Shown here one piece after another: positions 3,995-48,895 of a stretch of DNA of 64,000 nucleotides. The position numbers and the translations under genes were made by a program. Source of the DNA: a virus (Duplodnaviria; Caudoviricetes); IMG/VR virus record IMGVR_UViG_3300021256_001754, positions 96,001-160,000 of that record; one strand, 5' to 3'. Every line of letters begins with the position of its first letter. The first letter of the stretch is position 1. The notes beneath the pieces were generated by a model. It worked only from the letters and a program-made list of their open reading frames with translations. It was not told the DNA's origin and did not search any database.

Positions 3995-5641
3995 TTAACT
4001 CGCAAACCATTCAAATGGATCTATAGGATGAGATATATCAGGTTTACGATTTAATTCAGCATCTTCTTTAGAATAATCGAAAAATCTTTCATCTCTAAAA
4101 TAAATAGGAGTTATTATTCTAGGAGCAAGAGTTTCTATATTCTTATTCTGACGTTTCTCTATTATTTTTTCATTACGTCTAGCAAGTTCATATGCTTCAA
4201 GAGTTGTATCAGAAGTAGAAGAAGCATATGTATTGAATACAGGTAATTTATAATAATAGTATTTTCTTATAGCATTAAATCCCATATCTACAAGTTCGAT
4301 ATATAACGTATTAGGATCTCGTGTTCTTCCTAAAGTTTGTCTTGCCAATACTTCAGATTTAAATGGTTCTGCTAATACTACAGTAACTTTAAGTCCACCA
4401 ATATCTTCACCAGCACCAGCAGATTTGGTTGTACTAAGTATTATTCCTTTATTACGTTCTACATTTACTTTATCTTCTTTAGATACCAAAGAAGTAAATA
4501 TTCCAATATTACCAATATATTCAGGGAAATTTGTACATATCCATTTGTAGACTCTCAATATTCCATCATTAGTACCAATGTATATAAGAGTCTTTCCCTT
4601 AAACCCTTTTATCATATCCATTATAATTCTCAATGCCATATAGAAATTTTCATTTTGAGTTATATAATCTACATATTTATTTCTATCCAACCCATAAGCA
4701 TTTCTAAATGCTGATATGTATTCTGGTCTTGGTCTACTATTAAACTTTATAGCAAGATAATCAGTATGAGGATCATTATCTTTATCAAATAGATCTATAA
4801 ATGGTACATTCTTAAAAGCAGTCTTATATATAATCTTCTCCCTGAAATCGGATCTCAAAGGAGTAGCAGTTACATAATACGTTTTAAATACATTGGTAAA
4901 GAAATCTATTTTACACATATTCTCGAAATTCTGATGTGCTTCATCGAAGAATTTCATACCTATGCCTAATTGACGAAATGCTTGGTTTAATAATGCCCAT
5001 CCATTTTCGTCTGCAAAAGAACGTATAGCACCATGAGTACATAAAAAAATACTACCTGATTGTGCTAATCTACTCTTACCGGTTAATGCTAATTTCAGCA
5101 TTGCTGCTGATACAAACACAATATCTCTATCTGTTAAATTTGTATACTCTTTTATATCTTTTGCCCACTGTGCTAATAGAGAATTAGAACCAGTTATTAC
5201 AATAGACTTGATTTGATAATATGCCATTGTAGCAATAGATACATAAGTTTTACCAGCTCCAGTATTTAGATTTATAGATAACTGTGGCAGATATTCGTTC
5301 TCTTCATATTCTTGACCAATTCCACAAGTAAACTTCAATGCTTCATATTGTCGTTCATCTCTAGGTGGATATTTCATAAGTATATTTGTTTTTGTTTTCT
5401 TATATGGATTTGGTCTATCCATAATATGCTCTTTACATCCTACTTGCTTTTTAGCATACCATATATCTATTCCTCTAGGTATATATAAGATTCTCTCTTC
5501 TTTATCGTAATACATACCTACAGGATCATAGTTATGTCTTATAGGATCCCATATAGAAAAGCATCTCTCTAATTTTTGAGATTGATTAATAGTATAATCC
5601 GTTATAAGTATACAGGAATTTCTTACTATAACTTGGCTCAT
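3995..5641 (-). CDS. Superfamily 2 (DEAH) helicase
   Basis: TGAGKT Walker A, FFDEAH, TATP, QTLGRTR. Confidence 0.9.
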   Translation of the reverse strand: MSQVIVRNSCILITDYTINQSQKLERCFSIWDPIRHNYDPVGMYYDKEERILYIPRGIDIWYAKKQVGCKEHIMDRPNPYKKTKTNILMKYPPRDERQYEALKFTCGIGQEYEENEYLPQLSINLNTGAGKTYVSIATMAYYQIKSIVITGSNSLLAQWAKDIKEYTNLTDRDIVFVSAAMLKLALTGKSRLAQSGSIFLCTHGAIRSFADENGWALLNQAFRQLGIGMKFFDEAHQNFENMCKIDFFTNVFKTYYVTATPLRSDFREKIIYKTAFKNVPFIDLFDKDNDPHTDYLAIKFNSRPRPEYISAFRNAYGLDRNKYVDYITQNENFYMALRIIMDMIKGFKGKTLIYIGTNDGILRVYKWICTNFPEYIGNIGIFTSLVSKEDKVNVERNKGIILSTTKSAGAGEDIGGLKVTVVLAEPFKSEVLARQTLGRTRDPNTLYIELVDMGFNAIRKYYYYKLPVFNTYASSTSDTTLEAYELARRNEKIIEKRQNKNIETLAPRIITPIYFRDERFFDYSKEDAELNRKPDISHPIDPFEWFAS

Positions 5642-5696
5642 AAGTATTCCTTTCGAATAATTTAGGGAGACTTTAATTTAAGTCTCCCTAAGTTTA

Positions 5697-7871
5697 TTAT
5701 CTTTTTGGTGTTAATTGTGCTTTTACTGTAGCTTTGATATCATCCATAGTTACAGTTTCTTTATTAGTACTATTTATACCGGTGTCGTTATCCATAAAGT
5801 ATATAGGCTTTATAATCTTTCTCTCAGGAATATCATTAGACCTATCAACCAGTTTTGGATTAATAAAGTCTTGTGGTCTTTCCATAGCAAATGGATCAAG
5901 ATTTGATGGTTTATATAATACATGATTAGCCGCACTGGTTAATGTCTTCTTCAACTTACTTCCCTGAAGTCTTACACTAATTCTAGGAGAATTTGTTATA
6001 GCGTCTTCAAGAGTTATAAGCTGATATCCAGCATTAGACTGTTCCCAATCAGGCTCTAATAATATATCATCCGGATGTCTAATCTGATTAGAGATAAGAA
6101 CCTCAAAATGTACAGAATTGATCTTTATACCACCCTGCAGATTATATGCAATGAAATCCTGAAGTAATGTATTTCTGTCATGCATCTTGATAGAAGACTT
6201 ATTATCTATAAGATTCTTAATCTGCTTCATGGTTTTAGATAACTCATTGTTTTGAATATCTATATAGAATAGATTCAATCCAATCATTCTTGTAAGAGGA
6301 AGTACATAAACACCATCATCGTTTACATCTTCTTTTTCAAGTTCTGATATAAGGTCGTCATCTAAATAAATAGGATCGGACTCATTGGTATAAATAGATT
6401 CTATTCTACCATCAGGATATTGAATCTGGAAGTTGTATACATAATCATTGTTATCCTCATCTACATCTGTAGCACCCTCTACATCATCGTCTCCACTGTC
6501 AGATTCATCTATAATATTATCAGGATCAATAATAAGATTATATCTTCTATAATCTACATTATCTTTTAAGATGATTCTGTCATATTCTACATTAAACAAA
6601 TCGTAGAATGATTGAACCCATGTCATTTTGATAATAGACGCTTCAAGAAGATGTTTAGCAGACAATAATCGCTGAGTATATTTTGAAGATAATTGTTCCG
6701 AAGCAATCTGTCCAACGTTGATATCGTTATTAAGATAAGCCAATAAACCATAGCATCTATAACAGATACCAAATCCTTTAGCCGCAGATGCACATGTAAT
6801 AGGAGATCTAAATAATAATGTCTTACCGATAAGATGTTTATCAATCTCAGCGTTTAGAATATGCTCTACACCATCATATGATAACTTATAATATCGCATG
6901 TCAAACATGCTGAGCATGCTATTATCTTTGATATATACTTCTTCAAAGTTCTTTGTATCACATGAATACTGTGGATCAGGATTAAGGAAAGTATCCATAT
7001 TATTTAATCCTAATCTACGAGCAAATGCACCAGATTGTCCTACATTCTGTTTTGATATAATCTGTGCTATACGTCCTATAGAACTATCGATAACGATATC
7101 TTCTATACTCTTTAAACCACCATTGATAAAACTATGGTTTATAGGATGTGTAAATAGACCACCTTGACCATTAGGTTTAGGACCTATACATACATTAACT
7201 TCAGCAAACTGTTTAGGGTTTGTACCCTCTCCAGTCTGAAATGCATATTTCTGATTATGAGTAGATTCTGGTGCTGTAATATATTTCTGCTGAATCTTCT
7301 CATTTTTCATAATAAGCTCTTTAGCATCCTGCATTGGTACACCTGTTAAATCCAAATGCATTGTCTCATTAAATTCAGGATACTTTCTCATAAGCTCTAC
7401 AGTATCGTCAAAATCGACACTATTAGCAAAAAACATTTGATAGTTCTGTAGAGGTATAAACTTACTTATGCATCTATCTATGGACTGATTGATAGTTATT
7501 CTATCCATAGTCCTTAGATTTTTTCTTATGAAAAACTTATTTATATAATTAACCATCCAGTCTGTTTTTATGACCGGTTCAAATACAATATGCTTTGTAT
7601 CAATCTCTTTTCCAGATCTAGTAATCAAAGTCCAAAACATTAGATTGTATAAATACTGCTCTATATACAAACTACAATCTCCATGTCTGAAATGAATATT
7701 TATCTTAAATCTCTGCACTTCAGGATCTTCTATTCCATCATCTAAGATAGAAAGGATATTCTTGAAGTGATCATCGATGTTATCGTCGTTAATATCTTTG
7801 GTGTAAATATCTTGTACACCATTCTGTGCTAATTCTTTGTAATATCCGTAATTTTCAAAGTGTGGTAACAT
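5697..7871 (-). CDS. rpoC: Phage multisubunit RNA polymerase beta'-like subunit (C-terminal part), probably non-virion RNAP
   Basis: RSPITC...GICYRCYG Zn site, NVGQIASEQLSSKYTQRLLSAKH trigger-loop region; preceded by early-type motif at 7939-7949. Confidence 0.85.
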   Translation of the reverse strand: MLPHFENYGYYKELAQNGVQDIYTKDINDDNIDDHFKNILSILDDGIEDPEVQRFKINIHFRHGDCSLYIEQYLYNLMFWTLITRSGKEIDTKHIVFEPVIKTDWMVNYINKFFIRKNLRTMDRITINQSIDRCISKFIPLQNYQMFFANSVDFDDTVELMRKYPEFNETMHLDLTGVPMQDAKELIMKNEKIQQKYITAPESTHNQKYAFQTGEGTNPKQFAEVNVCIGPKPNGQGGLFTHPINHSFINGGLKSIEDIVIDSSIGRIAQIISKQNVGQSGAFARRLGLNNMDTFLNPDPQYSCDTKNFEEVYIKDNSMLSMFDMRYYKLSYDGVEHILNAEIDKHLIGKTLLFRSPITCASAAKGFGICYRCYGLLAYLNNDINVGQIASEQLSSKYTQRLLSAKHLLEASIIKMTWVQSFYDLFNVEYDRIILKDNVDYRRYNLIIDPDNIIDESDSGDDDVEGATDVDEDNNDYVYNFQIQYPDGRIESIYTNESDPIYLDDDLISELEKEDVNDDGVYVLPLTRMIGLNLFYIDIQNNELSKTMKQIKNLIDNKSSIKMHDRNTLLQDFIAYNLQGGIKINSVHFEVLISNQIRHPDDILLEPDWEQSNAGYQLITLEDAITNSPRISVRLQGSKLKKTLTSAANHVLYKPSNLDPFAMERPQDFINPKLVDRSNDIPERKIIKPIYFMDNDTGINSTNKETVTMDDIKATVKAQLTPKR

Positions 7872-7991
7872 TTAATACCTCCATAATTCACTGCTGTTAT
7901 ACTATTGTAATAGCATTGCTAACTTTTTACCTCAATATTATAGTATCTAATTTAATCCAGATTTACATCTTTATAAAGGAGGATTATACCT

Positions 7992-8438
7992 ATGGCTGTA
8001 TTGAATTCTAAGACTTTACCAGAACAGACTTTTAATTATAACGATTTTATTAGTTCTGGAGAAAACAATGACTTTACATTCGATAACTTTGAAATCAGTA
8101 TGCTGATAAATGGAATTTCTATTGGTGATTGTAACGTAATGGAATTTTATATACCAGAGATAATTGAGAATTGTGTCAAAGTTACTGAATTTACCAAAGA
8201 CGAAATATTAAGATATAAATATAATCCGGATCTTTTGGCTTGGGATGTATATAAGAATACTCAGTTAGATTATCTTATTCTTTTATGCAATGACATGTGT
8301 GATCCAAAAGAGTTTGATTTTAAAAAGGGATATTTATATCTTCCTAAATCTTCTATATTAAAGAACTTATTGTCTTTAATACATAATTCAGAATCTCGTT
8401 GGATAAAAAATTCTAAAGGTAAATCGTGGTTGTTATAA
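7992..8438 (+). CDS. LysM-like / T4 gp53-like baseplate wedge protein
   Basis: YKYNPDLLAWDVYKNTQLDYLILLCN pattern; late-type promoter upstream. Confidence 0.6.
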   Translation: MAVLNSKTLPEQTFNYNDFISSGENNDFTFDNFEISMLINGISIGDCNVMEFYIPEIIENCVKVTEFTKDEILRYKYNPDLLAWDVYKNTQLDYLILLCNDMCDPKEFDFKKGYLYLPKSSILKNLLSLIHNSESRWIKNSKGKSWLL

Positions 8439-8461
8439 AAATATGGGATAGGCTATATAGC

Positions 8462-10342
8462 CTATCCCGATTTTTGTCCAAGTGCTGCTCTTATAGATTC
8501 CAAATCATTTAGATCCAATTTATTCTGTGGTTCATTCATAAAGAATATTGGAACTATTACATTTGGTTTTGTTATCTGAGGATTTGGATCATTCATACTA
8601 TCAAGCTCATCTACAGAATCATCCATAACTACAGGTTCGTTAAGTGTATATACACTATTTGAATCTGAGAAAGTATTATCTTTCTTAGAAGTACCGGTAG
8701 ATATAATATCATTAATAGTAGACAATACATTAGAAGAAGTTGTTCTAACTGATGGCTGTCTACCATTTATCATCTTATTCATATGGAGATAAGTCTTATA
8801 CATTGGAGGAGTATCTAAATCTTCCAATAGTCTAATACCGCTTCCATATACAAATGGTTGAGCTATATAAGTAAGATCGGTTTTAACTCTTTTCTTGGTT
8901 AAGTTAAATACCATATATTTATTTCCCTCATCGTCGTAATCTAGATTTATAATAATTCCTAAATCCAAATTATCCAGCATAAGGAATGATTCACCTGTAT
9001 TAGACATACCAAGTTGCATTGTTATATCTGTAGGTGTTGCTCTTGCTTTATCTTGCTCTACAGCTCTAGCGGCTTCTCTATTAAGATGAGATACTGTGAT
9101 AAACGGAATATCTTTTTCAACTGCAAATGACTTAAATTCATTTACGACATTACCAAGTTCAATTCTAAGATCGGGAGTATATTCAGAAGATCTTATTCTC
9201 TTTACATGGTCCTGTATTACACATATAACTTCATATCCATCATCTTCCATATCTTCACACATATCGTATAGAAAAGTTGTATCAACTGTTCTATTGGCTT
9301 TATACCTAATTACCATATCGATAGGTGAATCATTTGTAAGTTTCAATTCTCCATCTACACGGAGTTTTCTAATAACTTCTTCCTTAGTAAAATTTTCCAT
9401 ACCAGAAGATGAGGTTATAAGATCAAATAGTCTATCTATAGTTTCTACTACAGAGTTCTCCATGGTAAGCATTACTACACATGGTTGTTTAGTTGGATCT
9501 TTTGGTTTATAATGCTTATTGTATTTTCTAATCTGATACATCAGGTTTAACAAAGTAACAGATTTTCCTATGTTTGTTATACCTAAAAGCATATATACAC
9601 GACCGGATTCAAATCCACCATTAATCATTTCATTGAATCCTTGCATACCAGTTACAAGTTTTCTAGATGGATTTGTAAGTAGATCGTAAGTTTCACCCAC
9701 TACATCTTCAAATATACCATCTCTCAAACTAAATACCATGTCTACGTTATTTGTAGATACTCTTGATTTTCTAAATTTAGAATGTGTATCGTTTACCAAT
9801 ACTTCAAAGTCATCTATCAAATGACCTTTACCTTCATATTCAGTTTTTGTTATAGCCGTACATACAGTCAAAAAATCTGGTGCCGCCATATAAGCAAATG
9901 CGAATTTGATATTATGCTCTATCATCTCATTTGCCCATTTTATCTCATTTGTAGTTAATAAGAATCTATCGATATTATTTGGATCTATAAAATCAGGTTT
10001 AAAATCCAAAGTTCCAAGTATATGATCTATCATTATATCCTGATCTGTAATCTTATAATCCATTCTAACTTCTAGAGCTTTTTTAATAAATTCTACATAA
10101 TGAGTTTTATTAAGATCATTAATATATACTTGAGGATTCAATAAATTTAAAAACTTCTTTAGATTATTTAAGTGATTCAAACGAATCAAATTGGATACAG
10201 TTACAGAATATCGTGCTAATATTCTAAAAGATCTTAAAGGTAGATTTAGAGATACAGTCTTTTTTACCTTAGGGGTCTTTATCTTTTTTGTATCATTAAT
10301 ATCAAATTTATCAATTACCATAATAAGATTACCCTCTTCCAA
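8462..10342 (-). CDS. dnaB: DnaB-like replicative helicase
   Basis: GGFESGRVYMLLGITNIGKS, LTMEN, IQDHV, VSHLNR motifs of phiKZ-type DnaB. Confidence 0.88.
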   Translation of the reverse strand: MEEGNLIMVIDKFDINDTKKIKTPKVKKTVSLNLPLRSFRILARYSVTVSNLIRLNHLNNLKKFLNLLNPQVYINDLNKTHYVEFIKKALEVRMDYKITDQDIMIDHILGTLDFKPDFIDPNNIDRFLLTTNEIKWANEMIEHNIKFAFAYMAAPDFLTVCTAITKTEYEGKGHLIDDFEVLVNDTHSKFRKSRVSTNNVDMVFSLRDGIFEDVVGETYDLLTNPSRKLVTGMQGFNEMINGGFESGRVYMLLGITNIGKSVTLLNLMYQIRKYNKHYKPKDPTKQPCVVMLTMENSVVETIDRLFDLITSSSGMENFTKEEVIRKLRVDGELKLTNDSPIDMVIRYKANRTVDTTFLYDMCEDMEDDGYEVICVIQDHVKRIRSSEYTPDLRIELGNVVNEFKSFAVEKDIPFITVSHLNREAARAVEQDKARATPTDITMQLGMSNTGESFLMLDNLDLGIIINLDYDDEGNKYMVFNLTKKRVKTDLTYIAQPFVYGSGIRLLEDLDTPPMYKTYLHMNKMINGRQPSVRTTSSNVLSTINDIISTGTSKKDNTFSDSNSVYTLNEPVVMDDSVDELDSMNDPNPQITKPNVIVPIFFMNEPQNKLDLNDLESIRAALGQKSG

Positions 10343-10422: not shown

Positions 10423-11538
10423 TTATAAATTGCTTGATAAAATCTCTCTTAATTTATCTACAGAAATTATATTTCTTCCTTCTTTCATATTGACATACAT
10501 AACAAACTTTTCTTCGTCTGATATATTATTGTCTAATATAAAACTATACTGGTCATCTATTACACTGATCCCTTCTTTTCTATCGTTATATTCTCTTTCT
10601 TCCATTGCTGATAAGAACTCAACTACTACTGTTGGATTAGTTCTATAGTAATTCTGTATTATTACTTTATCAGAACCGATAATTGGAAAATCAAATTTAA
10701 CCTTCAAGAAGTCTATACCATTCTCTCTCTTAGTAGTATTTATTTTTTCTATTATAGCTTTAGGATTTTTATCTACTACATGGCTTAAATGTATGGTCAC
10801 GTATTTATCAGATATAATATTCTGGAAATGAGTATAATGCATATTAGAATCCAAATCATGAATCGTTATAAGGAATCCTTTATCTTCTTCCTCATTGAAT
10901 TTATATCTATAAGGAGTACCACAATAATAGAAATACTTTTCAAAACATTCTGGTTTATGTACATGACCTGCAATCATAAATCCAGTACAATTAGAAAAGT
11001 CTTTCATAGTAAATAATCTACCTTGTCCGACATTATTACCATATACAGAACCTTCAAATGTACCATGCATTAAAGCTTCATCGTATAGACCAGATTTATG
11101 AAGATATTTATCATATACACTTTCATCTAATCCATATAATTCTGGTATACATAATATTCTTGCATTTCCAACTTGTTCTATAGATAATTGTGTTCTTATT
11201 CTTACATCTACATCTGATTTTTCTTGTAAATGATAAAAAAGTTTTAATTGGTCTGCATCATGTGAGAATGTACCATGAATCATGATAATTGTAGAGTTGT
11301 GTCTTCTAGCAACTGCTACAATATCATCTATTAGCTTTATAGCATAATATATACCACTACTATTTCCCATTAATTTATGGTCAAATAGATCACCATCTAT
11401 AGATATCATGTCTAATTTTGGCAAACTATCTATAACTGGTATAAATTGTTTTATTAAAATCTCATACTGGGCTTTAGCATCAAAAGCCGCAAAATGAATA
11501 TCGGCAATATGTGCCGATATAAATAATCCACGTCCCAT
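10423..11538 (-). CDS. sbcD: SbcD/Mre11-like metallophosphoesterase nuclease
   Basis: ADIH, GDLFD, GTFSHD, MHG, GHVH. Confidence 0.85.
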   Translation of the reverse strand: MGRGLFISAHIADIHFAAFDAKAQYEILIKQFIPVIDSLPKLDMISIDGDLFDHKLMGNSSGIYYAIKLIDDIVAVARRHNSTIIMIHGTFSHDADQLKLFYHLQEKSDVDVRIRTQLSIEQVGNARILCIPELYGLDESVYDKYLHKSGLYDEALMHGTFEGSVYGNNVGQGRLFTMKDFSNCTGFMIAGHVHKPECFEKYFYYCGTPYRYKFNEEEDKGFLITIHDLDSNMHYTHFQNIISDKYVTIHLSHVVDKNPKAIIEKINTTKRENGIDFLKVKFDFPIIGSDKVIIQNYYRTNPTVVVEFLSAMEEREYNDRKEGISVIDDQYSFILDNNISDEEKFVMYVNMKEGRNIISVDKLREILSSNL

Positions 11539-11599
11539 TATTCTTACCCCTATTTATTTTTAATCAATTATGATTATCATTTTTATAGTATATATTCGA

Positions 11600-12173: not shown

Positions 12174-12938
12174 TCATATTATCCTCTTATATGAATAAAA
12201 CCAGTCTATCATGGCTTTGAATGTATGATGTAAATTTTCTGTATCGTTACGACATTGAGGATTATTAAACTCGATTGTTTTGAAATCGAATTTACCTTTC
12301 ACATCTTTATCGACTCTTAAAATGGCTAATCCATTAATATCTGGAATAGAGTTATCTCCCATACAATATTTATTATACATTAATCCCCAATAGTATGCAT
12401 AAGTCTGGAGATAGTAATTAGCTGATATTATTTTAGAGGTTTTAAAATCCAATACATAAACAGTTTCTACTCCATTCTGTTCTAATCCAATAATACAATC
12501 TGCTGTTCCACCAAACCAAGGACAAGTAATCTCTTTCTCTATAGCGTATATATGAAGATTTATATTTTTATCTCTCATATAATTATACCAATTCATAAAC
12601 CCAGAGAAAGAATTCTCTATTTTTCTAGCAATCTTATAGCTATCTTGATATTCATCTGAGAATCTAATTCCTTTTCCATATAAAAGAAAATTTTCTATCT
12701 TCTCATGAACAGCTGTTCCTATAGTAAGAGCGGTATCTTTTATAGATTTATAATTCGATCCCATAGCAGCAGCCCATCCAATAAGATGCGAACTATCTGT
12801 AGTTACCTCCAATATTTCACTAACTCTAGGAATAGGTTTACCATTAAATGTATATGTCTTCCACATATTTGATTCTGTTAGCTCAATATCATTAAGCATA
12901 TTGAGCTCGAAATCATAAAAATAAATTGGATTAATCAT
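12174..12938 (-). CDS. PD-(D/E)XK (RecB/Cas4-like) exonuclease
   Basis: PRVSEIL, GTAVHEKIE, GGTADC, LDFKTS, YYLQTYAY. Confidence 0.85.
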   Translation of the reverse strand: MINPIYFYDFELNMLNDIELTESNMWKTYTFNGKPIPRVSEILEVTTDSSHLIGWAAAMGSNYKSIKDTALTIGTAVHEKIENFLLYGKGIRFSDEYQDSYKIARKIENSFSGFMNWYNYMRDKNINLHIYAIEKEITCPWFGGTADCIIGLEQNGVETVYVLDFKTSKIISANYYLQTYAYYWGLMYNKYCMGDNSIPDINGLAILRVDKDVKGKFDFKTIEFNNPQCRNDTENLHHTFKAMIDWFYSYKRII

Positions 12939-26317: not shown

Positions 26318-26920
26318 TTATCCGTGTGTCCAATTAGTAGCAATATCGAATGTGACACCACTACCATTATGTGTAAAATCTCCAGTATCGGCTACTATAC
26401 CTTTACCGAGAGATGTGTCTACTATACTACCATATGGATATATGTCCCAATCAGCAGCGACCATTATATAGTCTCCAAACATCTTGGCACCATCTTCGCG
26501 AATCCAGTAGTCTCCCTCATATCCCTTCTCTCTGAGGGTGCGTAATACGCCTTTCATATTAAGGTCGTAATACGTCTCTTTTCCACACGGACCATTGAAT
26601 ACACCAAGTTGTTTGGTAAGCTTAGGACCATCTGGAACAGGATTTAATATCTTTATTTTTTCGTCAGATACCAAATCTGCTCTGACATACCCACCACCTT
26701 CAACTGCTAACCATGCAGTATCAGTGATTGAATATTCTATCTGGGTGTTGATTCTGAATGTATCCAGTATCTCTGACTCAGTGTTAGGTTCTGCTCTTAA
26801 CCTAACACCATCCTTTGTGTAACCTGTTGCTGCACAACTACTTAGATTACTAAAAGCAATAACGTAAAATATCGCCATAACTAAAACAACAGCAGCAATT
26901 TTGATAACGTTCTTTTTCAT
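26318..26920 (-). CDS. Secreted SH3b + 3D/RlpA-like cell-wall enzyme
   Basis: Signal peptide, VRLRAEPNTESEIL SH3b, VAAD..IYPYGSIVDTSLG.GIVADTG; start at 26920 has AAGGAGG SD. Confidence 0.75.
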   Translation of the reverse strand: MKKNVIKIAAVVLVMAIFYVIAFSNLSSCAATGYTKDGVRLRAEPNTESEILDTFRINTQIEYSITDTAWLAVEGGGYVRADLVSDEKIKILNPVPDGPKLTKQLGVFNGPCGKETYYDLNMKGVLRTLREKGYEGDYWIREDGAKMFGDYIMVAADWDIYPYGSIVDTSLGKGIVADTGDFTHNGSGVTFDIATNWTHG

Positions 26921-27045
26921 TTTCTCGTCCTCCTTTAAATGAATTTCACGTTTCAACTACATTAATATAGTATATAATTTTAATCCTTCAAAATTACATA
27001 CTATACGTTATATTATTTTTATAGTATATAACCAAAGTAAAAAAT

Positions 27046-27072
27046 ACCCAGTAGGAGTTTATCCTACTGGGT
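27046..27072. terminator. Terminator (CCCAGTAGG family)
   Basis: Overlaps the HAD gene stop. Confidence 0.8.
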
Positions 27073-27520
27073 TATAAAATTTATTACCGTTTAAAATCGC
27101 TAAAGCATATTGTACATGAACCCATCCTAAGCCATTTCTATAAAAATCTGTTTTTACAAAATGTCTTTCTATCTCATCGTCATAGTCTCTAAATCTTTCA
27201 TCGTCTATTACACACCACGCGTCTATGTTTTGGTGTTCGTTCAAATATTTATGGATAGCTGTACCACGTTTACCACCTAGATGATCAACCTGATCAAATA
27301 TAAACAGTTTATGTTCTGCTAATCTACGTTCAAGATATAATAAGTTCTCTTCTATATTCATCCAACTAGAAGTCAAAACTAAGTATGCATTAGATTGTTC
27401 TACAATAGACTGTAATACTTCTATCTTTTCGTCATCTAGTCCAATTATAAATTTACTTAGTCTATCTTGTGTATCTTGACAGTTTAAAACCCCATCTATA
27501 TCAAGAAAAATAACTTTCAT
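27059..27520 (-). CDS. HAD-family hydrolase (Swiss Army Knife RNA-repair-like)
   Basis: IFLDIDGVLN, LTSSW, VIDDE. Confidence 0.88.
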   Translation of the reverse strand: MKVIFLDIDGVLNCQDTQDRLSKFIIGLDDEKIEVLQSIVEQSNAYLVLTSSWMNIEENLLYLERRLAEHKLFIFDQVDHLGGKRGTAIHKYLNEHQNIDAWCVIDDERFRDYDDEIERHFVKTDFYRNGLGWVHVQYALAILNGNKFYNPVG

Positions 27521-27546
27521 ATTACCACCCCCTTATTATATTCATA

Positions 27547-28944
27547 TTAATCTTTATGCTGATTCTTGATTCTAGAATCGTTAATATTATTCATTGTAAT
27601 AATTGTCTCATTTACATATTTCATATCTGCATAGAATACCAAGTTGAGCATTAACTCTTCATCTACAGGGTTCTCAAGACATATTATCTTCTTACCATAA
27701 TCAACTCGTATATCAACGCATCTAGCTTGATCAAATTGTTGTGACAGATACACTTTAGTATCGATAAACATTCTTGGATCTAATCCCATCTTTATAGTAT
27801 AATCTATAACCTGAGTTATATTACCACCACCATTCAGTATAGAAGATATATCGATAGTCTTTTCATTTCTATCTGTCATATAACTTGTAAGAGCAAACTG
27901 AGCCCATCCCTTTTCATTAACAGGTGGAATCTGGAATGGATTGACAGTATATAGAGAAACAGAAGTTTCTGGATCTTTATCATACACAGTAAGTTCATTA
28001 CCAATATACTCTTCTTCAAATAGCACAAAGAAATGAGGTATTGGTATTGTCAATACCGCTTCCATTTCTATATCATAGTTATCGTATAATTTTCCAACCT
28101 GATCCCCATCATTAGGTTGTAATTTATTCAGACAAGATATATGAGTATAGAGATCATCTATTCTCATAAAATAAGCCGGTTGTTGGTTTATTCCTCTCAT
28201 CTTACATATGATAGGAAGATGACTATGTCTATTAAGATAATTTGTCAAATCGCATATATCTTTCTTCTGTATCAGCATCTTTCCAGTCTCTGGATTCTTT
28301 ACTAATTCAAATCCAGCTTTACATGCTAATCCAATAATACATGATTCTGGTATATGAAAATCTATACTGCATCTATCATGCCATGTAGAACCAATCTTAA
28401 AACATAACTCCATTCTATTTAAAGCATCTAATTGTTCAGATCTAGTATTAAATCTAGCTCTAAAAGCAAATGTCATCTTTAAAGCTCTCATACGACAATA
28501 GAGATATTGTTTTGATTCAAAGTCTTTTAAAAATGATTGCTCATAGTCTGAAGTTTTTAAAAAGAGATGCTCGTTACCTTGATATAAATCAATATTCTCT
28601 CTATTGAAATCATACTCTATAGTGGGCACTATAGATAACATTGGTTTTTCTCTTTTGATATTATAATTATTAAACTTTTTCCAGTCTGATAATACATGTT
28701 TACCGTTGATATATACTGTTTTAAAATACTCTTTAGGAAATTTAGCAAGAAACCAATCTCTCATATATTCTATAGCTAAACTATATCCATGTACATATGA
28801 CGGTAAAGATAATTGTTTATATAATTTAGGACGATATAAGAAAAAGTCTATAGGGAGATTTGTAATATGTGTCTGTGCACCATTCTTACGTTTTTCATTT
28901 ACTATCTCTCTAATACTAACTGGTTTAAATCTATTCTCGTTCAT
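27547..28944 (-). CDS. Conserved jumbo-phage protein, probably virion structural
   Basis: 465 aa, AGGAGG SD, ACA-N6-TAA motif at 28963-28974; no diagnostic motif. Confidence 0.5.
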   Translation of the reverse strand: MNENRFKPVSIREIVNEKRKNGAQTHITNLPIDFFLYRPKLYKQLSLPSYVHGYSLAIEYMRDWFLAKFPKEYFKTVYINGKHVLSDWKKFNNYNIKREKPMLSIVPTIEYDFNRENIDLYQGNEHLFLKTSDYEQSFLKDFESKQYLYCRMRALKMTFAFRARFNTRSEQLDALNRMELCFKIGSTWHDRCSIDFHIPESCIIGLACKAGFELVKNPETGKMLIQKKDICDLTNYLNRHSHLPIICKMRGINQQPAYFMRIDDLYTHISCLNKLQPNDGDQVGKLYDNYDIEMEAVLTIPIPHFFVLFEEEYIGNELTVYDKDPETSVSLYTVNPFQIPPVNEKGWAQFALTSYMTDRNEKTIDISSILNGGGNITQVIDYTIKMGLDPRMFIDTKVYLSQQFDQARCVDIRVDYGKKIICLENPVDEELMLNLVFYADMKYVNETIITMNNINDSRIKNQHKD

Positions 28945-29033
28945 AAAGGTTTCCCTCCTTTGTTATATAGATGTAATTCTTAGGATAAATTATGAGGTTG
29001 GGAATTATATCCCAACCTCGTTATATTATACAT

Positions 29034-30654: not shown

Positions 30655-30993
30655 TTACATAAAATATATTGGTTCAATAATCTTCTTTATAGTAACGTGA
30701 GGTGTAGATAAAGCATCGTCATCTTTATTGGCTATCATATCTTCATATCGACTATAGAATCTCTTTCTTTTCCTTTCGATCTGTTCTTCATCCGGAACTA
30801 GATTAAATTCTCTAGCACACTGTATAAGATCAGAATATTCTTCTTTTATATTAGCATCTATCTCTTCCTCTATTTTAGGAGTAGGATTTTCTCCTCTTAA
30901 TTTTCTAACCTTTTTCATACACGCTTGTATTAATTCACTAGCCTCTTCTGCAAGTTGTTCGTACATAGCGGCCTCACCAATACACTCTATCAT
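30655..30993 (-). CDS. MazG-like nucleotide pyrophosphohydrolase
   Basis: QLAEEASELIQA...EEYSDL (EExxE...ExxD). Confidence 0.7.
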   Translation of the reverse strand: MIECIGEAAMYEQLAEEASELIQACMKKVRKLRGENPTPKIEEEIDANIKEEYSDLIQCAREFNLVPDEEQIERKRKRFYSRYEDMIANKDDDALSTPHVTIKKIIEPIYFM

Positions 30994-40424: not shown

Positions 40425-41006
40425 ATGGGAAATGATACTTTAAACATCCTGATTGTTGTTGATATGCAGAACGATTTTACTTATGGTTCTTTAGCAAATC
40501 AATCAACAGTTGATACTATTCCTGCAATCGTAGAAAAGGTAGAGAAATATCTGAAAGATGATAATGGTAAAATCATATTTACAAAAGATATGCATTTTGA
40601 CTACTATCTCGAATCAGAAGAAGGAAAACATCTTCCTATAAAACATTGTATATTTGGAACAGAAGGTTGGGATCTTGTAGATCCTTTAAAACGTATAGTG
40701 GATAATAATACTATAAAAGATAAGATTATTCAAGTTCCTAAATCTTCATTTGGTGCAATGAAGCTTAAAGATGCTATATATCGTCCTGGTACACATTTTA
40801 TTTATAGCAAAACAAATATAGAGATAGTTGGTACTTGTACTAGCTTATGTGTTATAGCAAATGCATTTATGGCTAAAGCTGCAGCACCTGATGCACATAT
40901 AATTATCGATGCAAAGTGTTGTTCAGATGTAAACGAAGAGAATCATAATAATGCTTTGAAAGTTATGAAGAATGCTCATATGGAAATTATTAATTGGGAG
41001 AAATGA
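40425..41006 (+). CDS. pncA: Nicotinamidase / isochorismatase-family cysteine hydrolase
   Basis: VVDMQNDF, DMH, HCIFGTEGW, KSSFG, GTCTSLCV. Confidence 0.88.
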   Translation: MGNDTLNILIVVDMQNDFTYGSLANQSTVDTIPAIVEKVEKYLKDDNGKIIFTKDMHFDYYLESEEGKHLPIKHCIFGTEGWDLVDPLKRIVDNNTIKDKIIQVPKSSFGAMKLKDAIYRPGTHFIYSKTNIEIVGTCTSLCVIANAFMAKAAAPDAHIIIDAKCCSDVNEENHNNALKVMKNAHMEIINWEK

Positions 41007-41008
41007 TT

Positions 41009-41518
41009 ATGGCACGATTGAAAGATAAAATAAATAATTTATACAACGAGGTTAAAGATAATATAACCACAGAGGATGAAATGATAACCTTTATCAATGA
41101 CTTTACTGATAACTTATCTAAATTGTTCTATATTATAGACAATACTCTTGCTGAAAGTAGTATAGTTAATCCTTTTTATTATCCAGATCCGGCAATAAAT
41201 AACGAAAATAAAGGATTTAGGATGTATTATTACAACAAGTGTATTACTGAAATTCTTTTTGGTAAACTCAATTTCACTAAATTACATATCTTCTCTGTAG
41301 CAATATACAGAAATGCTGATAAGTATTTTCTTGAGATTCGTCAAGATAAACGTCCTGGACATAAAGAAGATGATAAACGCTTTTTTATAGTTGAAGGTGA
41401 AAAATATGAAAAGGCTGATAGTAATATAGATCTACATACAGTATATAATATTCTAAATACAACTTATATGAAATTAAGTATAGAAGCAGATATTAAAATA
41501 ATCGAATTAAAAAAATAA
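41009..41518 (+). CDS. Hypothetical protein
   Basis: ATG after GGGAG; contains IVNPFYY motif. Confidence 0.7.
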   Translation: MARLKDKINNLYNEVKDNITTEDEMITFINDFTDNLSKLFYIIDNTLAESSIVNPFYYPDPAINNENKGFRMYYYNKCITEILFGKLNFTKLHIFSVAIYRNADKYFLEIRQDKRPGHKEDDKRFFIVEGEKYEKADSNIDLHTVYNILNTTYMKLSIEADIKIIELKK

Positions 41519-41539: not shown

Positions 41540-42652
41540 ATGAAAGAAACTGATACCGATTATTCTATAAAGTTTTATAAGAGATTTTATTACAATAAAA
41601 ATTCTATATCATTTATGAGATATCCGGATTATATGTATATGGCTGAAATAAAAAATCCATATTCATCTTTATGTGGAAACAGGGTATTTGAAATCGAAGA
41701 GCTTACAAAATCACGTGATGTTAATGGAACTTGGAGTATAGATATCCTCTTTAGATCTAATCCTAAATTATTAGATTATGATTATAGTATGGTAAAGGAA
41801 ATATTTGATTATGATAGAAATTGTTTGGCATTTTACGTTAGCAATAACTTTAGTAATTCATATTGGAGAGATCGTATATTTACCATTATAGGAGATAGTT
41901 TAAAATTAATTAATACCACTCTTAGATGTACCAGAATTGACGATTCAGATGAATATTATACTTTAAGTGGTATAATTGTACCAGAGGTTGTAGAAGATAT
42001 CGATAGAAGTTCAATAATCCCTAATCAGATGATCGATATGACTTTGCCTGCTCTTCTTCCTAAGCCTATAACTAAGGATGAAAAATGGCCTACAAAACCA
42101 TCTACTGCCGAGATGGATAAAGAAGATATAGTGTCAAAAGCAATAGATGAAATGACGTTATATCCGGAGAAAATAGTAGATTATATTCATTTTAATAATA
42201 CGACCACAACGAGGCTATTTCGTGATATAATAATTAAAAGTCTTAAAAAGGTATATGGAGATGATTATAAGTTAGGTTATAAATCTCAGATGGATTCTAC
42301 AAGAAAATTAATGGAGGATAAAATGAAATTAACAAGAGTTGGAATGATGTGTTTGGAACTGAAGGATGTAAAGTTCTCTGGAGATAAAACTATCGCGTTC
42401 TGGGAAGATGGTGAAAAGACTATTGTTACTATGCAGGACGATGAAAAGGAGTATGATCCCGAGAAGGCTATTATGGCTTGTTATATGAAGAGATTGATTG
42501 ATATTCAGAAACAGGTTACTAACCATAATATTTCTATAAAGAAGATCTTTGATAAGTATCTTGCTAAGTATGAGAAAGAGAAACCGAAGATTGAAGCTCA
42601 GATTCAGAAGATTAAGCAGAGAAAGGCTAATAAAAAAGAGAATACAAAATAA
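41540..42652 (+). CDS. Hypothetical protein with a common phage C-terminal domain and internal start
   Basis: C-terminal VKFSGDKTIAFWEDGEKTIV...YDPEKAI; internal GGAGG-ATG at 42323. Confidence 0.7.
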   Translation: MKETDTDYSIKFYKRFYYNKNSISFMRYPDYMYMAEIKNPYSSLCGNRVFEIEELTKSRDVNGTWSIDILFRSNPKLLDYDYSMVKEIFDYDRNCLAFYVSNNFSNSYWRDRIFTIIGDSLKLINTTLRCTRIDDSDEYYTLSGIIVPEVVEDIDRSSIIPNQMIDMTLPALLPKPITKDEKWPTKPSTAEMDKEDIVSKAIDEMTLYPEKIVDYIHFNNTTTTRLFRDIIIKSLKKVYGDDYKLGYKSQMDSTRKLMEDKMKLTRVGMMCLELKDVKFSGDKTIAFWEDGEKTIVTMQDDEKEYDPEKAIMACYMKRLIDIQKQVTNHNISIKKIFDKYLAKYEKEKPKIEAQIQKIKQRKANKKENTK

Positions 42653-42777
42653 GCTTCTCAAGAACTGTGAATAATAAATTAATCCCTGGGTGATTCCCAG
42701 GGATTTTTCTTTTATGAAAGGAGTATTATTTAACACATATCAAAACTAAAAAATAATAAATAGAAAGGTAATTCAGA

Positions 42778-43014
42778 ATGAAAGAAAACGATAATATAAT
42801 CGAATTAGAGAAAGTTAAACAGGAGAAAGAAAAGAAACGTATTAATGAGCTTACAGAAAATTTTGTAGCAAATGATTTAAACAAATTTCTGGAAACTCTT
42901 CCTGATACATACAGTGAATTCGAAAAGGATGTATCATTAGTATCCTATGTATTTACAACTGGTTATCTTTATGGAAAAGATGATGCAAAGAAAGAAATAG
43001 GTGAATCTAAATAG
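42778..43014 (+). CDS. Small protein, tandem duplicate of 43029
   Basis: Near-identical N- and C-termini. Confidence 0.75.
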   Translation: MKENDNIIELEKVKQEKEKKRINELTENFVANDLNKFLETLPDTYSEFEKDVSLVSYVFTTGYLYGKDDAKKEIGESK

Positions 43015-43028
43015 AAAGGTGGTTCATA

Positions 43029-43256
43029 ATGAACGAAAACGATAACGTAATTGAATTAGAGAAAATTAAACAGGAGAAAGAAAAGAAACGTATTAAAGAG
43101 CTTGTAGAGCATTTTATAATAGAACAATTGGATGATTTTCTAAAAACTCTTCCAGATACATATAATACAATCGAAAGAGATATATCAATATCATCTTGTG
43201 CATTTACAGCCGGTTATCTTTATGGAAAAGAAGATGCAAAGAAAGAAATCGAATAA
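43029..43256 (+). CDS. Small protein, tandem duplicate of 42778
   Basis: As above. Confidence 0.75.
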   Translation: MNENDNVIELEKIKQEKEKKRIKELVEHFIIEQLDDFLKTLPDTYNTIERDISISSCAFTAGYLYGKEDAKKEIE

Positions 43257-43267
43257 GGAGATAATAT

Positions 43268-43849
43268 ATGGATAAATGGGGTCGTAAGAATTCAGATTCA
43301 AATAATTTTAGAGTTGTACTTTTTGTATCTAGAAATAAAGATAACAAAACACCAGCAAATATTGTAAAAGGTTTTAAAGAAAGGAAAGAATCTTTTTTAA
43401 CCTATAAAGATACAGATGAGTTGATGGAAGATTTTAAAAACTTTGCTAGTAAAGGTGTTCCTGGAGAGATAAGCAGATTCTATATATCTGTAAATGCAAG
43501 AAATCTTACAAGCATTAAAAGAGCAGTATTGCATGCATTGATAGACGATGATTCAAATAAATTTATTGCAAATCCTCTTCCTTATATTGCAGGTATAGCA
43601 GCTTTAAAAGAAAATGCTTTGACTAGGAAATGGATGCTTGATATAGATACAAAAGATGAATCTGTATTAAATCAGATAAAAGAACTCATATCTAAAAATA
43701 CTGTAATATCTGAAGAAATAGAAACTCCAAATGGTTATCATATTATAGTAGAAAATGGATTTGATACTAGAGAATTATTGAATAAATTCCGCGATGTATC
43801 TCTAAAAAGAGATGATCTAAAATTCGTTTCTATAGCTACGAAAGTATAA
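43268..43849 (+). CDS. AEP (primase-polymerase)-superfamily-like protein
   Basis: WMLDIDTKD (hhDhD) and ETPNGYHII (xxGxH) motifs. Confidence 0.5.
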   Translation: MDKWGRKNSDSNNFRVVLFVSRNKDNKTPANIVKGFKERKESFLTYKDTDELMEDFKNFASKGVPGEISRFYISVNARNLTSIKRAVLHALIDDDSNKFIANPLPYIAGIAALKENALTRKWMLDIDTKDESVLNQIKELISKNTVISEEIETPNGYHIIVENGFDTRELLNKFRDVSLKRDDLKFVSIATKV

Positions 43850-44028
43850 TATACAAAAAATAAATAGCCCTAGGGACAATAAATCCCTAGGGTTATTTAC
43901 ATGTCTATGTTTCCTAAGTCTTTATTATTAAAGGAGAAACTTCAATTTTTTAACTTAGGAATTTTGAGAGGTGTCAATATATCGATATTACGACACTAAT
44001 GTAGAAGATTCTATACCGACATATTGAG

Positions 44029-44102
44029 AGCTCCTAATCTGATTCGAACAGATAACCTACTGATTACAAATCAGTTGCTCTTGCCAGTTGAGCTATAGAA
44101 GC
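44029..44102 (-). tRNA. trnT: tRNA-Thr(UGU)
   Basis: Minus strand GCTTCTA...TAGGAGC acceptor stem, GCTC/GAGC D arm, ACTGA-TTTGTAA-TCAGT anticodon arm, ATCTG-TTCGAAT-CAGAT T arm; CCA not encoded. Confidence 0.92.
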
Positions 44103-44784: not shown

Positions 44785-44802
44785 ATGATACTCCTATATA
44801 AA

Positions 44803-45939: not shown

Positions 45940-45979
45940 AACTAACTTATAATATTAGTATAATTTAGGAGGTTGATAT

Positions 45980-46288: not shown

Positions 46289-46321
46289 TATTTTATTCTC
46301 TATGGTTAAAATACCGTAGAG

Positions 46322-46405: not shown

Positions 46406-46440
46406 TAAGATTCTTTTTTTTTTTTCGATATATATTTAAT

Positions 46441-47298: not shown

Positions 47299-47311
47299 GA
47301 AAGAGGTAAAT

Positions 47312-47590
47312 ATTGCTGTTCCTAAAAGTAAACGTGGCGAGTCTAAATTAATGTATTATTACTATTCTTTAAGACTTACTGATGCTATAACTATGTTTCT
47401 TATGAAAGATTTTGGAATGAAAATGCACACCAAAGATATCCAAACAGCAACATATAATGCAAAAATGAGCAAAGAAGATACTACCGCATTTAAAAATATC
47501 TGTGGTAGATATGGTATCGATGTGGTTGTTAATTATCCAAATTGGTTAATGGATAATTTTCGCAATATGATACTTGCCGATCTTGATTAA
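47312..47590 (+). pseudogene. avd: Truncated Avd-like (four-helix bundle) DGR accessory gene
   Basis: (M)AVPKSKRGESKL.YY...L...IT..L.KDFG...YPNWL; ATT where ATG is expected after GAGG; truncated. Confidence 0.6.
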
Positions 47591-47610
47591 AATTAACAGA
47601 AACTGGAGCA

Positions 47611-47925
47611 TTGATTAGAAAAGTAAATTCAGAAGTATTTAGAAGAGAGTATAAAAGAATAAACAATTTTAGAATATTGCTGGATAAAGGTAGACTTAGT
47701 TTAAAAGATATTAGAAATTGTTATTTATCGTGGAGAGGAACATATTCTAAATTTGATTCTGGATATGATATATTAGATATGGATTTGTATTTTAGATATA
47801 TTTTTAATCTAAATAAAAATTTTGAATTACCAGAAGATATAGATAAATCTAAAAAGAAGACGAAAACAGATAAAAAGAAAATATATAGAAATAATTTTTA
47901 TAACGAACCAGGAATCAATTGCTAA
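47611..47925 (+). pseudogene. C-terminal fragment of a DGR-type reverse transcriptase
   Basis: RREYKR...LLDKGRL...DIRNCYLSWRG..SKFD....DMDLYF matches RT C-terminal end; no YxDD domain present. Confidence 0.65.
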
Positions 47926-48103
47926 TATAGTAGAATTCTCTTCTACTATATTTGTAAATAAATATAAAAAGTATATACATATACCCCCATCACCCAGATT
48001 AAGGGGGTATCTATACAATCACTATATTTGTAAATAAATACATGACTACCAACAAACTAGTATAAAATACAACATAATTGGTGTAATTAAGGAGGAATAT
48101 AAT

Positions 48104-48895
48104 ATGAACAACACACCTATTTGTCCAATTTATTTTGAGAATCATGAGTTTGGTGGTCATCTCTATAGTATTGAGAATTTTACAAACTTTAAATTTGGTT
48201 GTATAAGAACAACTATTCTTAACGGTAAACCTTACTTTTCCGCTAAAGATATTTGTAGAGGATTATGTCTCGACACAGATAATGTTTCTAGATTTGTTTC
48301 TGAAGCTGTCAATGATTTGGGTATGTACATATACCCTCCTTACCAGATTAGTGGGGTATCTATACAAGAGCTGTATTATACAATAAATATCGAAGTAACA
48401 CATCCAGGTAATAATGGCTGTCAAGTTAAACAAACGGTACAAACGTTATTTATTTCTGAACCTGTTTTATACATGCTAATATTTAGATCTAGAAAGAAAG
48501 ATGCTGTTGGGTTTAAAGCTTGGTTATCTGTAGAGATACTTCCTAATCTTAGAATTTTAGGTAGAGAAAGAGCAGCTTCTATTATAGCTGACGAAACTAA
48601 TGCTATGAGAAAGGCAGTAGCAGAAATCAGTAATAAATATGATAAGCTTGAGCATATGGCTGAAACAACAGGTCTTATATTTAGCAGTGTTATGGAAGTT
48701 ATTGATAAAGAACGTAGAGATCATAGTGTGGAAGCCTCTATAATAGATTCTAAGATTAAAGATCTAATTATTAGAGTTGATTCTATTGGTTGGAATAGTA
48801 GTGAGCTTATCAATGGACAGATGGACTTAGCTCAGAAAATAAATGGTATAGCATCTGGATTAGATATGATATTCGGTGGTAGAAGAAGTGCATAA
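48104..48895 (+). CDS. Bro-N domain protein
   Basis: FGCIRT..LNGKPYFSAKDIC..L; ISEPVLYMLIFRSRKKDAVGFKAWL..EILP. Confidence 0.88.
   Translation: MNNTPICPIYFENHEFGGHLYSIENFTNFKFGCIRTTILNGKPYFSAKDICRGLCLDTDNVSRFVSEAVNDLGMYIYPPYQISGVSIQELYYTINIEVTHPGNNGCQVKQTVQTLFISEPVLYMLIFRSRKKDAVGFKAWLSVEILPNLRILGRERAASIIADETNAMRKAVAEISNKYDKLEHMAETTGLIFSSVMEVIDKERRDHSVEASIIDSKIKDLIIRVDSIGWNSSELINGQMDLAQKINGIASGLDMIFGGRRSA

Follow-up and report, generated by a model that had tools for sequence, protein, structure and literature searches.

Terminal peptide tags on the DNA- and RNA-handling proteins of an uncultured jumbo phage, and a candidate for their reader

A recurrent peptide at the ends of unrelated proteins

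The stretch of DNA considered here, bases 96001-160000 of IMG/VR record IMGVR_UViG_3300021256_001754 (64,000 nucleotides, hereafter the window), belongs to a jumbo phage whose genome is a single contig of 249,585 bp, with 32% G+C and a CheckV completeness of 100%. The phage encodes split multisubunit RNA polymerases (RNAPs), a divergent and likewise split family-B DNA polymerase (PolB) and a divergent DnaB; its closest named relatives by protein are AR9/PBS1, phiR1-37 and Staphylococcus S6-like phages, at 25-33% identity. Our subject is a short peptide, spelled PIYF at its core in this phage and hereafter called the tag, which is located on non-homologous terminal extensions of unrelated DNA and RNA enzymes. 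Protein identities were checked with Pfam and PHROGs. Features of the window are given in window positions and all others in genome or locus (L) positions; G000 denotes the genome of this phage, with its PIYF spelling, and G001, G002, G004, G007, G009, G010 and G018 are related uncultured jumbo phages. The strong instances within the window, with their scores in a weight-matrix scan, are the following:

4097..4117, minus strand: IITPIYF in a superfamily 2 (SF2; Rad25/ResIII-like) helicase (gene 3995-5641), 33 amino acids (aa) before the C-end; score 28.6
5796..5816, minus strand: IIKPIYF in the non-virion RNAP beta' C-terminal subunit (gene 5697-7871), 32 aa before the C-end; score 31.2, the best site
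8540..8560, minus strand: VIVPIFF in a divergent DnaB-like helicase (gene 8462-10342; PF20307, PF03796), 25 aa before the C-end; score 25.7
12918..12938, minus strand: MINPIYF at the extreme N-end of an exonuclease (gene 12174-12938; phrog_298 exonuclease); score 21.8
30661..30681, minus strand: IIEPIYF, followed by Met and the stop, at the C-end of a MazG-like nucleoside triphosphate pyrophosphohydrolase (gene 30655-30993; phrog_4856, phrog_2245); score 29.3
48116..48136, plus strand: PICPIYF at the N-end of a Bro-N domain protein (gene 48104-48895; PF02498); score 22.6

All six were present where the original prediction had seen them, and the identities it gave to helicase, beta', DnaB, exonuclease, MazG-like and Bro-N proteins agree with Pfam and PHROGs.

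Does the peptide stand out from what an AT-rich proteome would produce anyway? Over the 270 called open reading frames (ORFs) of the whole genome, P[IL][YF]F was seen 23 times, against 1.6 expected by composition and a mean of 1.8 (maximum 6) in 200 shuffles. The longer form [IV]xP[IL][YF]F was seen 20 times against 0.23 expected, and the full pattern, [KR]x[IV]IxP[IL][YF]F followed by acidic residues, describes 23 sites on 21 proteins where about 1.7 would be expected. The excess over composition and shuffles is thus 14- to 87-fold, the outcome of a proteome-wide comparison with shuffled controls that had been named beforehand as a check. PIYF itself occurs 14 times and each of its 23 other letter orders zero to two times; a pattern-free search ranks it first among all tetrapeptides of the proteome, and in a reduced alphabet the word proline-aliphatic-aromatic-aromatic comes first as well (19 proteins versus 2.2 expected, at most 45 aa from an end). 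The weight-matrix scan separates the sites cleanly: 22 score at least 20 (range 20-31), one scores 17.5, and the rest reach at most 16, the next being an N-terminal MPLYF at 15.9, while shuffled proteomes yield 0.05 sites per genome above a score of 16. The matrix carries information beyond the letters used for selection, with Lys or Arg at positions -5 and -4, Ile or Val at -3 and Asp or Glu after the core; Ile occupies position -2 in 17 of the 22 sites. Since synonymous codons vary between sites (CCT/CCA, ATT/ATA, TAT/TAC), selection acts on the peptide and not on a DNA word, and we rejected a DNA-level motif on this ground.

Fifteen of the 23 sites lie in C-terminal tails, five at most 15 aa from an N-end and three in internal linkers, so that 20 of the 23 are terminal. 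The non-virion RNAP beta C-terminal subunit (ortholog of AR9 gp089) has three copies in its tail and beta' (ortholog of AR9 gp154, a non-virion RNAP subunit) has one. PolB is tagged on both halves, the exonuclease half at its C-end and the catalytic half in an internal linker. Further enzyme carriers are DnaB, the RNAP-associated SF2 helicase, NAD ligase, RNase H, RusA, the exonuclease and the MazG-like protein; Bro-N and NUMOD4-like proteins represent selfish or regulatory DNA binders, and one of two phrog_12252 paralogs together with seven small or unknown proteins completes the set. An equal frequency in virion proteins had been set down by the original prediction as an argument against itself. 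In this genome, no tag was seen on the major head protein, the fibre proteins, the prohead protease or either of the virion RNAP subunits encoded in the window (54213-56003 and 48937-53886). Topoisomerase II, UvsX and SbcCD are likewise untagged.

Further features of the window help to delimit the tag:

41171..41182, plus strand: PFYY inside a 174-aa protein (40994-41518), not a member; score below 9, internal, without the basic and acidic flanks
55782..55793, minus strand: PVFF in the virion RNAP beta' N-terminal subunit (gene 54213-56003), not a tag; score 10.2
48937..53886, minus strand: virion RNAP beta-like protein of 1649 aa, homologous to the AR9 gp189 region, an untagged control; no site scores above 9
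11498-11563, plus strand: frame of 21 codons without ATG, GTG or TTG, antisense to the first codons of an SbcD-like gene and ending in PRPIILTPIYF and a stop; score 19.3

The PFYY site had been listed as a weak instance, IVNPFYY in the protein at 41009, and falls away, as it sits at position 60 of 174. The PVFF site is kept as PVFF or PVFY in G001 and G002 and as PVYF in AR9 virion RNAP gp145; as AR9 has the site without any tag system, its conservation marks it as a fold element and not a tag. The start-less frame may be a chance product of six-frame space or the relic of a tagged gene end. Both phrog_12252 paralogs (L004:11829-12548, minus strand, and L011:16430-17239, minus strand) show weak HNH-like features; the 239-aa copy is untagged and among the most conserved proteins of the clade, and the 269-aa copy is tag-ended in every lineage examined. 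Upstream of the RNase H gene lies a microbial-type poly(ADP-ribose) glycohydrolase domain (PF10021, E 7e-24; L004:776-1576, plus strand, genome 54776-55576).

As to provenance, a megablast search of phage records with the helicase-to-DnaB stretch returned no match, its relatives being distant proteins only. Every sequencing run with half or more of the sampled words carries the label gut metagenome, and a sheep-gut run contains one third. One metatranscriptome run, made from the sample that is also the likely source, contains 29% of the sampled words of window 3995-10342, which hints at expression.

Retention of the tag and its lineage-private spelling

Retention in orthologs had likewise been named beforehand as a check, and the tag is retained, in a spelling that differs from lineage to lineage. 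The beta' protein has more than 1,300 metagenome relatives; nearly all of the best 120 (47-98% identity) retain a hydrophobic tail peptide at the same place, with a spelling that varies from group to group. Lineage-specific spelling likewise appears in the beta' tails of 80 IMG/VR loci (33-51% identity), where the DnaB and helicase tails follow their own lineage. Spellings across lineages comprise PIYF, PIYY, AIYF, PA[TFY]I, PF[TYE]I and VVEF, and tags with other spellings stand at the same places in genomes of 27-39% G+C. Orthologs tagged across lineages include beta, beta', beta-N, helicase, DnaB, the PolB exonuclease half, RNase H, RusA, the phrog_12252 paralog and Bro-N.

To what extent is a spelling private to its genome? 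We counted proteins with a given pattern at most 60 aa from an end in this genome, five further near-complete genomes and AR9. G000 has 18 proteins with P[IL][YF]F (0.7 expected), G007 18 with PA[TFYV]I (0.6), G009 15 with PF.I (1.1), G004 10 with A[IV].F (1.8), G002 nine with its own spelling (1.7) and G010 five with VV[ES]F (0.6), while AR9 has zero to two for all patterns. Counts off the diagonal are mostly zero to four, the exceptions being overlapping spellings of close relatives; each spelling is enriched only in the protein termini of its own genome. The spellings of the other genomes were read by eye from three to six tails before counting, which makes the comparison partly circular and takes some weight from it; the lineage counts far exceed the number of proteins that defined the spellings.

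Alignments with G001 and G002 show PIYF being kept while its flanks diverge. In G001, a 48%-identical relative, the old tag site of the helicase has decayed and a new PIYF stands at the very C-end; the G001 exonuclease tag has decayed to NPLYV, and the PolB linker site of the same genome has decayed too. The Bro-N protein bears its tag at the N-end in this phage, and its G007 ortholog has the lineage tag IVPATI at the C-end. A conserved island in divergent non-domain sequence, with gain, loss and relocation among orthologs (G001/G002, G007 Bro-N, the 120 beta' tails), is the hallmark of a short linear motif. Copy number varies as well: in G009 (26800-29007 and 42143-44098, loci L176 and L177), the RNAP beta tail has five copies and the tail of the PolB exonuclease half three, where this phage has three and one.

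Outside the clade, the tag tails are absent. The AR9, phiR1-37 and S6 orthologs stop before the tail; in the AR9 helicase ortholog, gp156, which is shorter by 71 aa, the tag is missing. A pattern-free search of AR9 gave no comparable enriched terminal peptide, and its only enriched terminal word, FPE[ILV][FY], was rejected as a tag, as it stems partly from paralogous homing endonucleases. The tails of phiKZ gp74 and gp75 have no peptide in common.

Because the spelling changes in concert on unrelated proteins within each lineage, a single co-evolving reader is suggested, and we consider it very probable that the tag is real and serves as a docking motif for one such partner. Here the original prediction, which had proposed a docking or targeting motif for a common hub, stands as far as the motif goes, being borne out by the carrier set, the retention in orthologs and the concerted spelling. 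The hubs it named fared less well: no homolog of a nucleus shell or import factor was found, no classical clamp was detected by sequence and no single-stranded DNA-binding protein (SSB) was identified.

A candidate reader and other hubs considered

What could the reader be? Sixty genes are common to six tagged genomes, and profile searches against AR9 left as clade-specific non-carriers proteins of 210, 240, 173, 536 and 685 aa. The best candidate is the 210-aa protein, a small acidic two-repeat protein (isoelectric point, pI, 4.4) that was absent from the hubs listed in the original prediction. Its gene lies outside the window (genome 24715-25347, L002:6715-7347), in a constant gene block that runs RNAP beta, ligase, 210-aa protein, 240-aa helix-turn-helix (HTH)-like protein, RNAP beta-N. 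Of 32 near-complete clade genomes, 31 have a member of the family, and searches of AR9, phiKZ, phiR1-37 and S6 found none, a distribution that matches that of the tags.

The 210-aa protein is modelled with a predicted local distance difference test score (pLDDT) of 89.2 and a predicted template modelling score (pTM) of 0.87, as two repeats, each of two helices followed by a three-stranded sheet. In a predicted complex with beta' residues 672-706, the interface score (interaction prediction score from aligned errors, ipSAE) is 0.81 (runs 0.79, 0.81 and 0.82) against 0.01 for the best control; of 80 solved complexes, 58 reach this mark, as do 2 of the 110 mismatched pairs, counts that hold only roughly because our own alignment was used for the prediction. 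The runs have at least 84% of contacts in common, with a partner pLDDT of at least 56. On the peptide side, the predicted interface coincides exactly with the tag, KIIKPIYFMDN (residues 685-695); on the reader side, it comprises residues 23, 27-30, 34, 38, 126, 129-135, 138 and 141-142, including the conserved F133, and the tag is predicted to lie in a groove between the helix pairs of the two repeats. Interface columns vary more than those elsewhere in the protein (mean entropy 2.88 versus 2.28 over 32 orthologs, a value reached by 3 of 10,000 random column sets), as would be expected if the pocket tracks a changing tag. The most conserved part is a basic C-terminal helix (K199, K203, D205), which may anchor the reader to something else.

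Several points weigh against this assignment. Binding of the tag by the 210-aa protein is a prediction, resting on model confidence, and the calibration pairs may understate how easily a hydrophobic peptide settles into a groove. Surface columns vary more than cores in any case, so the entropy result is a weak one, and a residue-by-residue comparison of pocket columns with tag letters gave no resolvable co-variation, as related lineages share both. G018, the contig of locus L051, is 99% complete and tagged and has no match to the 210-aa family at E 0.01. The reader is modelled as a monomer with one predicted site. As for a kinship to HU, hhalign of the family against AR9 HU gp103 gave a non-significant probability of 1.1%, leaving no detectable sequence kinship, and the arm loops are short and acidic in consensus (PN.EDP.APG; ENGEV) and so lack basic DNA-embracing arms, which argues against HU-like DNA binding. 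On balance, we favour the 210-aa protein as the reader by a little over even chances; that the reader is neither this protein nor the polymerase-adjacent, clamp-like ORF discussed below has a small but real chance, and the two could also both take part.

Where might such a protein have come from? The HU/IHF-family protein of AR9, gp103 (98 aa; L215:11706-12002, minus strand, adjoining a uracil-DNA-glycosylase inhibitor gene), occupies the same interval between ligase and RNAP beta-N as the 210-aa protein of the clade. Like HU and IHF (AR9 gp103 HU; SPO1 TF1), the candidate has the helix-helix-three-strand order, here twice, and a weak match to single-chain IHF (2iif; Z 5.1, root mean square deviation (rmsd) 3.7, 112 residues aligned; HU/Hbb halves Z 3.2-4.7), at Z values below the level where fold identity is safe. 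Unlike them, it is acidic and has no match to any Pfam family at E up to 0.5, Bac_DNA_binding included, and its top structural matches are two-repeat eukaryotic microtubule inner proteins (Z 10, rmsd 3.6, 162 aligned). The term HU-like is therefore tentative, and DNA binding by the candidate is doubtful. The 210-aa protein is possibly a fused, no longer basic derivative of a phage HU gene.

Two observations stand beside this candidate. In G018, the beta' tail has a tag-like LINPLITVED, and the polymerase-adjacent family, A6, is present. Directly after the 210-aa gene comes that of the 240-aa clade-core protein (L002:7425-8147, plus strand, genome 25425-26147), whose C-terminal half looks by eye like an XRE-type HTH and whose copy in this phage ends in an acidic run; a search found no homolog in AR9 or phiKZ.

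Searches for the more obvious hubs were negative. A search of the complete genome up to E 10 found no match to chimallin (PF25677); the control, phiKZ gp054, scored 1121 bits. With phiKZ gp69, which we take to be the PicA importer, a single-sequence search of the genome likewise gave none at E up to 10, a search that a very distant relative could escape. In five clade genomes, PF00705 (PCNA_N) and PF00712 (DNA_pol3_beta) had no match and PF09116 (gp45-slide_C) had one below threshold (E 0.015, in G005), which we rejected as a clamp, its gene adjoining that of SbcC and not a polymerase gene. No clamp loader (RFC- or gp44-62-like AAA+) was among the approximately 60 proteins scanned with Pfam or PHROGs, a scan that was not a dedicated search. 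The 371-aa ORF between DnaB and exonuclease has the size of a beta-clamp and is an SbcD/Mre11-like nuclease. A tubulin/FtsZ-family GTPase (PF00091, E 1e-11, with a weak PhuZ PHROG match; L007:11372-12541, plus strand, genome 169372-170541) adjoins the PolB catalytic gene; it is present in G001, and its absence from the tagged G002 and G004 makes it accessory and excludes it as the hub. Among proteins tried as the reader, we also set aside the 239-aa phrog_12252 paralog, which has only its weak HNH-like features and an AR9 homolog, and the 249-aa (A4), 266-aa (A3) and 374-aa (A2) families, which have AR9 homologs by profile search, against the phyletic pattern. None of these three matched a PDB sequence, and A4 folded poorly (pLDDT 62.6), without a structural match.

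Competing explanations, known docking systems and the purpose of the tag

Could the pattern arise without any reader? At 32% G+C, Ile, Tyr and Phe are common, and one start-less copy stands in a non-coding frame, so that chance, an AT-rich composition effect or a translated DNA signal (promoter, terminator or recombination site) has to be weighed. The counts relative to composition and shuffles, the lack of enrichment of other PIYF letter orders, the variation of synonymous codons and the differently spelled tags of orthologs at the same places across a range of G+C contents refute this explanation, to which we give next to no credence. A reader other than the 210-aa protein deserves more weight. 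Behind the gene for the PolB exonuclease half, and often overlapping it, lies an ORF (A6) that might encode a hidden sliding-clamp-like protein, a toolbelt in the style of T4 gp45 that would couple late transcription to replication. Here it has 174 aa (L010:16196-16720, plus strand, genome 228196-228720) and its start lies three bases beyond the stop of the gene for the tagged exonuclease half. In each of the six genomes compared, that gene is followed by a positional ortholog (relatives of about 200-310 aa, with C-terminal halves that align). The family has members in 26 of the 32 clade genomes, and none were found in AR9, phiKZ, phiR1-37 and S6. Being widespread in the clade and absent from the outgroups, like the 210-aa family, it is not separated from it by phyletic evidence. 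Polymerase, ligase, RNase H, nucleases, resolvase and RNAP are the classical clients of clamps such as T4 gp45 and PCNA, and the tagged proteins make up this very list. Yet no clamp Pfam gave a credible match in the five clade genomes, the A6 profile matches nothing in PDB sequences or Pfam, the copy of this phage is 26-38 aa shorter than most relatives, which have 200-212 aa, and, at pI 7.8, near-neutral where known clamps are acidic, and no clamp loader was identified among the proteins scanned. We accord the clamp-like ORF a limited chance of being the reader.

The tag might instead be an address label, read by a host protein (clamp, SSB or chaperone), by another clade protein (the 240-aa HTH-like, 173-aa basic, 536-aa or 685-aa protein, four further clade-core genes without AR9 homologs) or by the gate or scaffold of a non-chimallin compartment or condensate; in the compartment version, it would work like a nuclear import or partition signal. 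The tagged set is indeed what a nucleus-forming phage keeps with its DNA: in phiKZ, the non-virion RNAP localises inside the nucleus and the virion RNAP is excluded (PMC13282480), and here the virion RNAP is untagged. Endonuclease-like selfish proteins and Bro-N, which need access to phage DNA, are tagged too, and the RNAP beta tail is multivalent, as condensate clients often are. Set against this are the lack of chimallin and of a gp69 relative, the accessory nature of the tubulin gene, fast-diverging spellings that favour a fast-evolving phage reader over a conserved host hub, the strong and motif-exact interface already predicted for the 210-aa protein, and a report that chimallivirus import does not use a terminal signal sequence (PMC12908238). 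Such a label is, in our view, unlikely. Finally, the tag may be a shared regulatory handle, be it a degron, a site recognised by a chaperone or protease, or the place where an inhibitor docks and turns all of these enzymes off or on together; the 210-aa protein could then be a sequestering factor, a role that a single-site acidic monomer fits as well as that of a scaffold. A hydrophobic heptad after basic residues resembles the recognition sequences of chaperones and proteases, and binding of the DnaK type is disfavoured by acidic residues such as those that follow the core. The pockets of host chaperones and proteases are conserved, at odds with lineage-private spellings, and both the restriction to DNA and RNA enzymes and the multivalent RNAP tails fit recruitment better; a regulatory handle is accordingly quite improbable.

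Hub-and-peptide systems are known from other replication machineries. The sliding clamp gp45 of T4 and RB69 binds peptides on gp43 polymerase, DNA ligase, gp33 and gp55, according to a source (PMC6212786) cited in PMC7824862, and the PCNA PIP-box and the bacterial beta-clamp motif QL[SD]LF form comparable toolbelts (PMC11139829). With gp45, the tag system would have in common a phage-encoded reader, a short hydrophobic end peptide on polymerase, ligase and late-transcription machinery, and a link between replication and late transcription. The consensus is unrelated, though, the roughly 21 clients include DnaB, RusA, the MazG-like protein and selfish elements, the spelling is lineage-private, and no member of the gp45, PCNA or beta-clamp families is detectable by sequence, the candidate reader being a predicted two-repeat alpha+beta monomer and not a ring. 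Like the PIP-box and the beta-clamp motif, the tag sits on the flexible termini of many enzymes of replication and repair; as a short linear motif, it would bind in extended or 3-10 form, within a hydrophobic pocket for which clients would compete. It lacks the Gln anchor, has an invariant Pro (or Ala) and is rewritten in each phage lineage along with its presumed reader, in contrast to the cross-kingdom conservation seen in cells. As the consensus [KR]x[IV]IxP[IL][YF]F fits none of Qxx[LIM]xx[FY][FY], QL[SD]LF and LDFLF-type peptides, the tag falls, on consensus, outside the PIP-box, beta-clamp-motif and gp45-peptide families. The eukaryotic Ctf4 trimer is a non-clamp hub that uses a CIP-box peptide to couple the replicative helicase to polymerase and to accessory nucleases and helicases. 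The likeness would lie in one non-clamp hub with clients that share a short peptide; fold, motif and organisms are unrelated. Chimallivirus import (chimallin shell, PicA/Imp1) also gathers phage DNA and RNA enzymes selectively, the non-virion and not the virion RNAP, in jumbo phages with split multisubunit RNAPs, and is reported to recognise its cargo by surface residues and not by a terminal signal sequence (PMC12908238). Here the tag is mostly terminal, and searches of the genome found no chimallin or PicA homolog; the tag system is not this import system.

What, then, is the physiological role of the tag? We picture it as a short linear docking peptide with the core [IV]-I-x-P-[IL]-[YF]-F, basic before and acidic after, placed on flexible ends or loops in about 21 proteins through which the phage handles its DNA or RNA. 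All of these tags would plug, as an extended strand, into one phage-encoded, co-evolving reader, presumably in the groove between the helix pairs of its two repeats. From this, we infer that the reader, anchored perhaps through its basic helix, would gather the enzymes of replication, Okazaki-fragment processing, recombination and late transcription at one place, much as a clamp toolbelt does. A bolder version, which is rather speculative as a whole, sees in the tag-reader pair a private addressing code that defines a shell-less replication-transcription factory: an HU-derived acidic reader would mark the site, the tag would admit every enzyme working on phage DNA, resident selfish elements (NUMOD4/HNH, Bro-N) would have copied it to get in, and the rapid re-spelling of tag and pocket in each lineage would shut out host proteins as well as relatives that co-infect, thereby acting as molecular kin discrimination. 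The enzymes admitted would include the tagged RNA polymerase, which in these phages without a primase may have a second role in priming replication.

Jumbo phages of the phiKZ/AR9 group have been described as having no sliding clamp, primase or classical SSB (PMC7824862), and our negative clamp searches agree with this comparative work. Our literature search found no paper describing such a tag system; PIYF matches in phage papers were unrelated, and none joined jumbo phages and short linear motifs. For annotation, the tag offers a simple rule, namely that an unknown phage protein that bears it most likely works on phage DNA or RNA. The lineage-private re-spelling within a large clade of uncultured animal-gut phages amounts to a natural experiment in motif-pocket co-evolution, and co-evolved tag-reader pairs, as orthogonal peptide-receptor pairs, could serve as tools. 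How phages of the phiKZ/AR9 group hold together their replisome and their own RNA polymerase is a question that the tag code and its candidate reader make testable with peptides and small proteins, and no isolate is needed to begin.

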